A DNA stretch of 64,000 bases from Escherichia coli (GCF_050920415.1 NZ_CP169309.1); one strand, 5' to 3'. Counted from the stretch's first letter, positions 26,526 to 28,386 are shown. The notes: generated by a model from the sequence alone, not told the origin. Made by a program: numbers and translations.

Positions 26526-26858
26526 ATGAACCCTTATATTTATCTTGGTGGCGCAATACTTGCAGAGGTCATTGGTACAACCTTAATGAAGTTTTCAGAG
26601 GGGTTTACACGGTTATGGCCCTCTGTTGGCACAATTATTTGTTATTGTGCATCATTCTGGTTATTAGCTCAGACGCTGGCTTATATACCTACAGGGATTG
26701 CTTATGCTATTTGGTCAGGAGTCGGTATCGTTCTGATTAGTTTGCTTTCCTGGGGATTTTTTAGCCAACGACTGGACCTGCCAGCCATCATAGGCATGAT
26801 GTTGATTTGTGCCGGTGTGTTAGTCATTAACTTGTTGTCACGAAGTGCACCGCATTAA
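26526..26858 (+). CDS. emrE: SMR-family multidrug efflux protein, EmrE-like
   Basis: ORF 26346..26858; start taken at MNPYIYLGGAILAEVIGTTLMKFSEGF (110 aa, four TM segments), near-identical to EmrE as recalled. Confidence 0.85.
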   Translation: MNPYIYLGGAILAEVIGTTLMKFSEGFTRLWPSVGTIICYCASFWLLAQTLAYIPTGIAYAIWSGVGIVLISLLSWGFFSQRLDLPAIIGMMLICAGVLVINLLSRSAPH

Positions 26859-27026
26859 AAAATAATTATCCTTGAGACAACAGGAATGTAATTTGTGCAT
26901 ATTATGGCTAATGCTGAGGGCAACTTTATAATTATGATTGTATTTGCACGATCATTGCGCCTTTATGCATAATGAGAGCAAGGCACATCAAATAAAATAA
27001 CGATAGGTCACAACAAAGAGGTTTTT

Positions 27027-27579
27027 ATGAAAAAGCTTATCGTTTCAAGTGTATTGGCATTCATAACATTTTCTGCGCAGGCCGCAGCATTTCAGGTCAC
27101 TAGTAATGAAATAAAAACAGGAGAGCAACTTACAACGTCTCATGTATTTTCTGGATTTGGGTGTGAGGGGGGGTAATACATCGCCCTCATTAACCTGGTC
27201 TGGTGCTCCAGAAGGCACCAAAAGCTTTGCCGTAACTGTGTATGATCCAGATGCGCCTACAGGCAGTGGATGGTGGCACTGGACTGTTGCTAATATTCCA
27301 GCAACGGTAACATATTTGCCCGCTGATGCAGGAAGACGTGATGGTACAAAACTTCCGACTGGTGCTGTCCAGGGCCGAAATGATTTTGGCTATGCAGGAT
27401 TTGGTGGAGCATGTCCTCCCAAAGGAGATAAACCCCATCATTACCAGTTTAAAGTATGGGCTCTAAAAACTGATAAGATTCCTGTGGATTCTAATTCCAG
27501 CGGAGCGTTAGTTGGTTATATGCTTAATGCCAATAAAATTGCAACCGCTGAGATAACACCAGTTTATGAGGTAAAGTAG
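27027..27579 (+). pseudogene. ybcL: YbcL-like PEBP-family periplasmic protein, interrupted by a frameshift in a G7 homopolymer
   Basis: N-terminal frame MKKLIVSSVLAFITFSAQA...SGFGCEGG stops at 27174..27176; the continuation NTSPSLTWSG...ITPVYEVK is in ORF 27142..27579; G run at 27167..27173. Confidence 0.6.
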
Positions 27580-27588
27580 GGTAAGAGT

Positions 27589-28386
27589 ATGCTGGCAAAA
27601 GATAGGACTAACCTAAAGATTGAAGAAATACGGATGCATAAACATCATGAGATTCACAGGGTTAAGCCTCTTATGCCAGCTTTATGTCGTATCCGTCAGG
27701 GAAAAAAAGTTATCAATTGGGAAACGCATAGTCTAACTGTTGATAATAATCAGATAATTTTATTTCCCTGTGGATATGAATTTTATATTGCGAATTACCC
27801 AGAAGCAGGTCTTTATCTTGCAGAAATGCTTTATTATCCCATTGATCTAATTGAAAAGTTCCAAAATCTTTATGCGATAACCGATCAAATTCGTAACACG
27901 ACAGGTTTCTGCTTACCTCAGAATCCCGAGTTAATATATTGTTGGGAGCAACTAAAAACATCTGTTTCCCGAGGCTTCTCAACGCAAATTCAGGAACACT
28001 TAGCAATGGGCGTTCTACTTTCATTAGGAGCACATCATGTTAATTGTTTACTTTTATCAGATAGTAAACAATCATTAATAAGTCGTTGTTATAACCTAAT
28101 GCTATCCGAACCTGGAACAAAATGGACAGCAAACAAGGTAGCGAGATATCTCTACATTTCTGTTTCCACATTGCATCGCCGTCTGGCAAGCGAGGGAGTA
28201 AGTTTTCAAAGTATATTGGACGACGTGAGGTTAAATAATGCGTTGTCTGCTATACAAACGACAGTAAAACCTATCAGCGAGATTGCCAGGGAAAATGGTT
28301 ACAAGTGTCCTTCTCGTTTTACTGAAAGGTTCCATAATCGTTTTAAGATAACACCAAGAGAGCTAAGAAAAGCGTCCAGAGAGTAA
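27589..28386 (+). CDS. ybcM: AraC-family transcriptional regulator, YbcM-like
   Basis: 265 aa; C-terminal AraC-type HTH region. Confidence 0.75.

Follow-up and report, generated by a model that had tools for sequence, protein, structure and literature searches.

The emrE-ybcL-ybcM segment between fliE and yedK of Escherichia coli as a probable relic of a lambdoid prophage integrated at the 3′ end of fliE

The DNA considered here carries the genes emrE, ybcL and ybcM, all on the plus strand, between the flagellar gene fliE and yedK, and the question is how genes that are known in K-12 as prophage cargo came to occupy this place. The window, i.e., the whole stretch of DNA that was analysed, comprises 64,000 nucleotides of Escherichia coli (GCF_050920415.1, NZ_CP169309.1). 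The original prediction had placed the three genes between fliE and yedK, and their presence there, as well as their coordinates, was confirmed. The layout is unlike that of K-12, as had been supposed, since MG1655 has the order yedK-yedL-yedN′-intG′-fliE. The assignment of the trio to the cargo of the DLP12 prophage in K-12 also proved correct, although the order in DLP12 is emrE-ylcJ-ybcK-ybcL-ybcM and the intervening ylcJ and ybcK had been missed. The interval 26173–29248 seems to be what is left of a lambdoid prophage that entered the last 20 bp of fliE through site-specific recombination, and we put the probability of this reading at about 0.85. A search of the available literature found no description of a fliE-emrE-yedK prophage relic.

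The frequency of the layout was assessed in 5426 complete E. coli genomes, using junction-spanning queries and counting a genome if one place covered at least 80% of the query. The fliE-emrE junction was found in 2619 genomes (48.3%), the K-12 interval (yedL-yedN-intG) in 1167 (21.5%) and a short allele with 394 bp between yedK and fliE in 1142 (21.0%), these being raw counts that reflect the sampling of RefSeq. The remaining genomes, about 9%, include K-12-type loci without yedL. In 2599 genomes, the 3.1-kb interval is found in full. The carriers of the emrE allele include UTI89 (B2), ST131, O104:H4 C227-11 and B7A, and the O157:H7 strains listed have a K-12-type layout with an intact espR3. 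The emrE-type layout is the commonest state in E. coli, and the locus is an ordinary one, so the view of this arrangement as an unusual replacement of the K-12 layout was not upheld. The original prediction had allowed that the arrangement might prove to be the majority state, with K-12 as the exception. In substance this is the case, with the correction that the emrE type forms a plurality and not a strict majority.

The features of the interval are listed in Table 1. The gene calls follow the PGAP annotation of E. coli MFDS1022581, which is 100% identical to the window across the interval, together with the ORF list.

Table 1. Features of the fliE-yedK interval, in coordinates of the window
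Feature	Position	Strand	Basis or remark
fliE	25878–26192	+	PGAP, ORF list; last 20 bp form the phage attachment core
attL-type core, TGATGAGCATGCAGGTGTAA	26173–26192		3 substitutions relative to canonical TGATGTCCATGCAGGTGTAG
Integrase remnant, C-terminal piece	26212–26346	-	aa 387–431 of a 434-aa lambdoid integrase; tblastn
Second integrase fragment	26324–26449	-	About aa 238–277, other reading frame; blastn, tblastn
Last 9 nt of ren and ren-emrE spacer	26450–26525	+	DLP12/PhiR70_1 homology
emrE, intact gene of a predicted SMR proton/drug antiporter	26526–26858	+	NF042984
ybcL pseudogene, predicted periplasmic PEBP/RKIP-like product	27027–27579	+	NF007330, PGAP
ybcM, intact gene of a predicted AraC-family regulator	27589–28386	+	PGAP, AraC-type HTH matches
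Homologue of the DLP12 ybcM-ylcH interval	28387–28593	+	Part of the alignment of 26885–28593 to L003 7752–9459
Antiterminator Q gene (quuD-like), last ~99 nt	28603–28701	+	81% identity to L003 11242–11342
nmpC/ompD-like porin, first 14 codons (28708–28749, MKKLTVAISAVAAS) and upstream region	28708–29086	-	
142 bp with no match in the phage collection	29087–29228		Conserved in other emrE-type loci
attR-type core, exact copy of TGATGTCCATGCAGGTGTAG	29229–29248		
Native spacer, 18 bp, ATAATCTCCAGGCTTATC, up to the yedK stop codon	29249–29266		Common to all alleles
IS200/IS605 with group II intron	29267–32456		Later insertion in the yedK stop codon
yedK	32452–33123	-	ORF list, PGAP

The original prediction had proposed a search for remnants of a recombinase and of att sites, and both kinds of remnant exist. 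Two fragments of an integrase gene were found next to fliE, at about 26212–26449. They lie on the minus strand, as would be expected beside attL, and together they retain about 85 of 434 codons. The remnant was identified by a blastn match to the int gene of phage IdasGreatGrand, the second fragment showing 74.5% identity (E = 2e-10), and a pairwise tblastn comparison gave 76% identity of the C-terminal piece to the integrase of the same phage (E = 1e-19). The match to a PHROGs integrase was weak (E = 0.022), and PGAP labels the C-terminal piece ‘integrase, incomplete’ in other strains. In UTI89, the C-terminus is kept through the last residue, with 88% identity. The sequence from fliE to 26329 is common to all alleles of the locus (26193–26329 in the alignment of the alleles), and at least 95% of genomes contain the integrase remnant. 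The second fragment, on the other hand, occurs only in the emrE-type allele, where it is joined to the C-terminal piece through an internal deletion. An E. albertii integrase was also considered as a relative of the remnant, and the comparison showed no relation.

The variable segment ends 18 bp short of the yedK stop codon, and immediately inside this boundary is one copy of a 20-bp direct repeat that brackets the island (26173–26192 and 29229–29248). The sequence TGATGTCCATGCAGGTGTAG is the canonical 3′ end of fliE; the copy in the fliE gene of the window differs from it at 3 of 20 positions, and the right, attR-like copy is exact. Among 2000 shuffles of the interval, none gave a copy of the repeat with two or fewer mismatches. 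Four other emrE-type loci (L004, L005, L015 and L011) carry the attR repeat at their right end with 0–1 mismatch, and the K-12, short and LRR alleles lack it. The 142 bp that precede it in the window may represent the arm of the phage that adjoined attR. In the K-12 and short alleles, the int remnant is longer by about 60 bp than in the emrE allele, yet these two alleles have no attR. This indicates that one allele is not simply derived from another, and more than one integration or replacement event may have occurred at the locus.

An identical 20-mer is located in the genome of IdasGreatGrand (PP925829.1), 17 bp past the integrase stop codon, as the attP core, and the sequence that comes after it is the one found 3′ of fliE in E. 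coli. A full-length integrase of the IdasGreatGrand family is annotated beside fliE in six genomes. Besides, strain UTAK-1 contains a complete-looking P22/lambda-like prophage directly after fliE, with the 20-mer at both ends. This prophage includes int, xis, N, repressor, replication, nin, Q, lysis, terminase and tailspike genes, and its right core adjoins a phage arm nearly identical to the arm of IdasGreatGrand, beyond which the resident integrase relic, an LRR gene and yedK are located. From the 20-mer at the attP of IdasGreatGrand and on either side of the UTAK-1 prophage, it follows that the end of fliE is a working attB. As judged from these sequences, the last 20 bp of fliE is the attB of a lambdoid-phage integrase, and the proposed insertion hot spot at the fliE-yedK junction is thereby borne out and provided with a mechanism. 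A single-piece empty site was not found among the 25 best-scoring matches to a synthetic fliE/yedK junction in the 5426 E. coli genomes, all of which were two-piece short alleles. The unoccupied attB would have read ...GTGATG(AGC/TCC)ATGCAGGTGTA(A/G), followed by ATAATCTCCAGGCTTATCA and then by yedK.

In the interior of the island, the genes are embedded in phage debris. The gene order in the window (ren′, emrE, ybcL, ybcM, ylcH′, Q′ and an oppositely oriented porin) follows that of DLP12 and phage PhiR70_1. Four segments were aligned to the DLP12 locus of K-12 (L003): 26450–26867 corresponds to 5240–5655 with 92.1% identity and covers the last 9 nt of ren, the spacer and emrE; 26885–28593 corresponds to 7752–9459 with 89.6% identity and covers ybcL, ybcM and most of ylcH; 28603–28701 corresponds to 11242–11342 with 81% identity and represents the last ~99 nt of quuD (Q), which occupies 10957–11340; and 28708–29086 corresponds to 13786–14163 with 82% identity and includes the start of nmpC with its upstream region. 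The DNA described originally as an AT-rich spacer is, therefore, not anonymous but debris from the late-control region of a phage, in which a ylcH-like piece is followed by the final 99 nt of Q and by a 5′ stub of an nmpC-like porin with its upstream region. The homology to DLP12 starts at 26450, i.e., at L003 5240, where renD ends at 5248, and the homology to PhiR70_1 starts likewise. This position is a deletion joint at which xis through ren were lost, and the end at 28593 is another, at which ybcN through the 5′ part of Q were lost. The stubs of ren, ylcH, Q and the porin left in the island are non-functional. The segment in the window is not DLP12 itself: it is located at fliE, and ylcJ-ybcK are absent between emrE and ybcL, a spacer of 17 bp being found where DLP12 has 2.1 kb with these genes.

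The copies at the fliE locus in different strains, including UTI89, share 98–99.5% nucleotide identity (dS 0.04–0.065). The copies in the window and in DLP12 share 89.6–94% (dS 0.23–0.34), and those in the window and in E. albertii 84–88% (dS 0.72–0.90); for the flanking core genes, the comparison of the window with K-12 gave 95.4–97.3% (dS 0.11–0.20). The alignment of the window with UTI89 forms one block from fliK to the porin joint, with no break of identity at the edge of the island. These values, the lack of a break, the presence of the remnant in at least 95% of genomes and the lack of an empty site among the best matches indicate that the integration is old relative to the diversification of E. 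coli. The dN/dS values of emrE, ybcL and ybcM range from 0.02 to 0.27, and the ratios place these genes under purifying selection.

The same figures bear on the suggestion that the module was recently copied or transferred from DLP12 at argU. The gene names and the gene order do match DLP12, but the divergence from it, set against that among the fliE-locus copies, already refutes such an origin; in addition, ylcJ and ybcK are absent, the integrase and the attachment site differ (fliE versus argU/intD), and the source genome has no DLP12-type copy, the only place that matches the module holding its only emrE and ybcM. This suggestion is hardly tenable. It is very improbable, too, that the fliE-yedK interval was the original chromosomal home of the trio, where lambdoid phages captured the genes. 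The commonest allele, the purifying selection and the restriction of YbcM to Escherichia among the GTDB species representatives scanned would agree with this origin, but the genes lie inside phage debris with att repeats at both sides, which is a derived state and not that of a source.

Another possibility is that the cassette is separate from the integrase relic, and that a non-phage integrative island or recombination brought emrE-ybcL-ybcM, with or without the porin, into a much older phage scar. In E. albertii NBRC 107761, an emrE-ybcL-ybcM trio without ybcK is located between sapC and sapB in an island that also contains an unrelated 409-aa integrase, an OYE reductase, a hydrolase and a LysR regulator, so the trio can move outside lambdoid phages. 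This non-lambdoid island, with its different integrase, speaks for a separate arrival, as do the presence of the C-terminal integrase piece in alleles without the cassette and the K-12-type allele without attR. An extant phage that joins an IdasGreatGrand-type integrase to an emrE-ybcL-ybcM nin region was not identified. However, the cassette includes dead lambdoid stubs (the 3′ end of ren, ylcH′ and the 3′ end of Q) in phage order, it ends at an attR copy of the core used by the neighbouring type of integrase, and the second integrase fragment abuts the ren stub. A separate arrival is, consequently, considered unlikely, and integration of one lambdoid prophage at fliE is the preferred reading.

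For this prophage relic, we infer a single ancestral phage, a state before integration and an order of deletions as follows. A lambdoid prophage would have entered the end of fliE by site-specific recombination, and deletions would then have cost it most of int, all of the early region (xis through ren), a stretch of the nin region that begins with ybcN and reaches into the 5′ part of Q, and everything between the lysis genes and the right arm of the phage, both included; ylcJ-ybcK would either have been deleted or never have been present. The survivors would be lysogenic-conversion genes, namely emrE, the ybcL-ybcM operon and the porin, kept by purifying selection, and the relic would have been inherited as one of the three common alleles of the locus. 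Later, in the strain of the window, the porin would have been deleted and ybcL frameshifted, an IS200/IS605 element would have entered the stop codon of yedK, and a group II intron would have entered the IS.

Both CEA601S and UTI89 retain an intact porin gene, which is on the minus strand. In the window, a deletion of 1222 bp is joined at 28707/28708, where the alignment to the emrE-type locus L005 jumps from 8514 to 9737. The emrE allele with the porin deleted and an IS200/IS605 element beside yedK was found in 1042 genomes, the window included. In strain C8, the IS is located directly 3′ of ybcM and yedK is truncated, and O104:H4 and ST131 show a C8-like pattern of matches, with tnpA right after the truncated match. 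The element in the window contains tnpA (29323–29754, minus strand) and tnpB (29762–30580) with an internal deletion, and the group II intron (30621–32451, with the reverse transcriptase at 30997–32367) is located 5 nt before the right end of the IS. As a result of the insertion, yedK gains one Tyr codon and a new stop codon from the IS. The ybcL frameshift and the group II intron are particular to the strain of the window.

The functions of the surviving genes we infer from their K-12 and UTI89 homologues. The product of emrE consists of 110 aa and matches NCBIfam NF042984 with 237.8 bits (cut-off 226) over residues 1–110 of 110. It shares 97.3% amino-acid identity with K-12 EmrE, and the dN/dS of the gene is 0.02–0.06. 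EmrE needs the membrane-embedded Glu14, and this residue is retained in the window within MNPYIYLGGAILAEVIG. It is likely that, as in its homologue, the role of the protein is the export of cationic compounds.

The ybcL gene belongs to the PEBP family, and NF007330 (cut-off 277) matches the C-terminal 145 aa with 314.8 bits. Its frame is not intact: one extra base in a G-run at 27167–27173 changes GAAGGTGGT to GAGGGGGGGT, and this +1 shift splits the signal peptide from the PEBP domain, which is still recognisable. PGAP labels the gene ‘frameshifted’ in MFDS1022581. YbcL is likely to be inactive in the strain of the window. At position 99 of the precursor (mature position 78), Thr is present in UTI89 YbcL and Val in K-12, and the frameshifted copy of the window would encode Ala; Lau et al. 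in 2012 reportedly dealt with a V78T change in mature YbcL, which fits the difference between UTI89 and K-12. The ybcL gene of UTI89 is located at the fliE locus. The YbcL protein of UPEC dampens neutrophil migration, and this activity is set by one residue (PMC4810123).

The product of ybcM consists of 265 aa, with a C-terminal AraC-type HTH and 92.1% amino-acid identity to K-12 YbcM. The AraC-type matches span residues of about 153–264, and none of them is over an equivalog cut-off. In K-12, YbcM binds upstream of ybcLM, and a deletion of ybcM leads to an 8-fold lower survival in H2O2 (PMC8464067). According to a meeting abstract, YbcM represses motility genes (PMC9966839). By analogy, the protein is likely to be a transcription factor that aids survival of peroxide, as in K-12. 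In a scan of one genome per GTDB species, whose sensitivity is limited by exact-peptide seeds, the matches to YbcM were confined to E. coli, E. albertii, a mislabelled MAG contig and an unrelated AraC protein of Paenibacillus. A scan of the island for promoters and terminators gave fewer sites than shuffled sequence.

The trio is retained jointly in three contexts unrelated to each other, namely the lambdoid nin region, the fliE relic and the sapC/sapB island of E. albertii. In about half of E. coli, ybcM adjoins fliE and the fliFGHIJK operon, and YbcM is the protein for which repression of motility has been reported (PMC9966839). As a rather doubtful speculation, emrE-ybcL-ybcM might form a coupled conversion cassette in which YbcM controls an efflux pump and a periplasmic PEBP protein, and YbcM, encoded beside fliE and the fliFGHIJK operon, might have been co-opted to hold flagellar expression down locally.

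On this reading, a variable locus of E. coli is no longer an anonymous hot spot but is accounted for by the attachment site that a lambdoid integrase uses there. The findings are unsurprising for a prophage relic, and the relic is ordinary and widespread. EmrE, YbcL and YbcM are usually treated as DLP12 cargo, but about half of sequenced E. coli encode them at a different, older relic beside flagellar genes. For annotation and resistome surveys, this means two lineages of emrE with a nucleotide difference of about 7%, which should stay unmerged. Besides, the immune-modulator gene ybcL of UPEC UTI89 is the fliE-locus copy and not the DLP12 copy.

Several known systems can be compared with the relic. 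DLP12 of K-12, which is also a decayed lambdoid prophage, has the same cargo in the same order and orientation (emrE, ybcL, ybcM, Q and an oppositely oriented nmpC-type porin). Its site, however, is argU/intD, whereas the window has the fliE 3′ end and an IdasGreatGrand-type integrase. Among the parts that DLP12 still has are ylcJ-ybcK, the nin region, Q and the lysis genes, whereas the window lacks ylcJ and ybcK, and the shared genes differ at 6–9% of nucleotide positions. The plaque-forming phage PhiR70_1 (PV340577.1), whose genome is complete, represents the undeleted form of the interior of the window, with the order cI-cro-cII-O-P-ren-emrE-ybcK-ybcL-ybcM-ybcN-ninE-ybcO-rusA-ylcG-Q-OmpD(-)-S-R-Rz. 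Its identity to the window is about 90% in the ybcL-ybcM block, but PhiR70_1 has ybcK and all phage functions.

IdasGreatGrand and the UTAK-1 prophage, both complete-looking, share the integrase family and the 20-bp core with the window, and the UTAK-1 prophage occupies the 3′ end of fliE in the same orientation as the relic; in the part of this prophage that was examined, however, the nin region is without emrE, ybcL and ybcM. In K-12 MG1655, the intG pseudogene, or ‘cryptic prophage PR-G’, is the same C-terminal integrase remnant in the same place, and 26193–26329 of the window lies within a block that is 96% identical. Behind intG, though, K-12 has yedN′, an LRR effector pseudogene, and yedL instead of emrE-ybcL-ybcM-porin, and no attR repeat. 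In UTI89, fliE-emrE-ybcL-ybcM-porin-yedK represents the intact form of the allele found in the window, with an intact ybcL, with the porin kept, and without the IS or the intron.

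The penultimate serine codon of fliE is AGC or TCC depending on the strain (window 26173-26192; 20001-20020 and 6830-6849 in the comparison loci L017 and L018, respectively), a difference of three nucleotide changes. Since TCC is the form found in phage attP, it appears that the last codons of fliE are swapped for a synonymous phage-borne copy upon integration. In the region 24005-26192, comprising fliF and fliE, the window fliF demonstrated 94.6-95.4% identity to all other strains compared, lower than that of the island genes (98-99.5%) and yedE (97-98%), and its dS relative to K-12 was 0.20. 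This low level of identity suggests that the flagellar region of the window strain is divergent or has undergone recombination.

The YbcM protein was described in a meeting abstract as repressing motility genes (PMC9966839). Roughly half of E. coli genomes have ybcM (window 27589-28386) no more than 1.4 kb away from fliE, and at a distance of about 2 kb from fliFGHIJK, the divergent operon (window fli region 20968-26192).

At the other border, the IS200/IS605 element is inserted within the stop codon of yedK (window 32452-32459 and 29260-29270). The new stop is supplied by the last five nucleotides of the element, TCAAT, and YedK has thus gained one C-terminal Tyr (223 aa vs 222 originally). 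Alignment with the copy of strain Z142-6 shows that about 380 bp are missing from the interior of tnpB, the two sides of the joint overlapping by 12 bp. PGAP nonetheless annotates a 272-aa TnpB-family protein.

Features of the IS200/IS605 element and its group II intron
Feature	Window position	Detail
tnpB	29762-30580	deletion joint ~30212-30223
Group II intron and IS right end	30593-32456	intron 5' GTGCG at 30621
Intron domains D1-D4	30702-30971	Rfam matches
Intron RT	30997-32367	

The group II intron is immediately preceded by a stem-loop, CCACGTCC...GCGTGG, and the right end of the element lies 5 nt beyond the intron. This IS/intron junction is common to only two of the 5426 complete E. coli genomes scanned. 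The match to intron copies on many plasmids extends into the 28 nt preceding the splice site, suggesting a homing-site context common to them and the window intron.

In E. albertii NBRC 107761 (L013 5403-12372), an island with the order int-emrE-ybcL-ybcM-OYE reductase-hydrolase-LysR regulator is located between sapC and sapB, splitting the sapABCDF operon. A 5.2-kb contig labelled 'MAG: Lachnospiraceae bacterium' (L011, SFGN01000137.1) matches the fliE-emrE-ybcL-ybcM-porin-yedK locus of E. coli at 95-98% identity. The contig almost certainly represents E. coli DNA assigned to the wrong bin. The lambdoid phage PhiR47_2 (L008 5078-8585) encodes ren-emrE-ybcK, followed by a different minus-strand gene where ybcL-ybcM would be expected. 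This gene order indicates that emrE(-ybcK) and ybcL-ybcM behave as separate mosaic modules.
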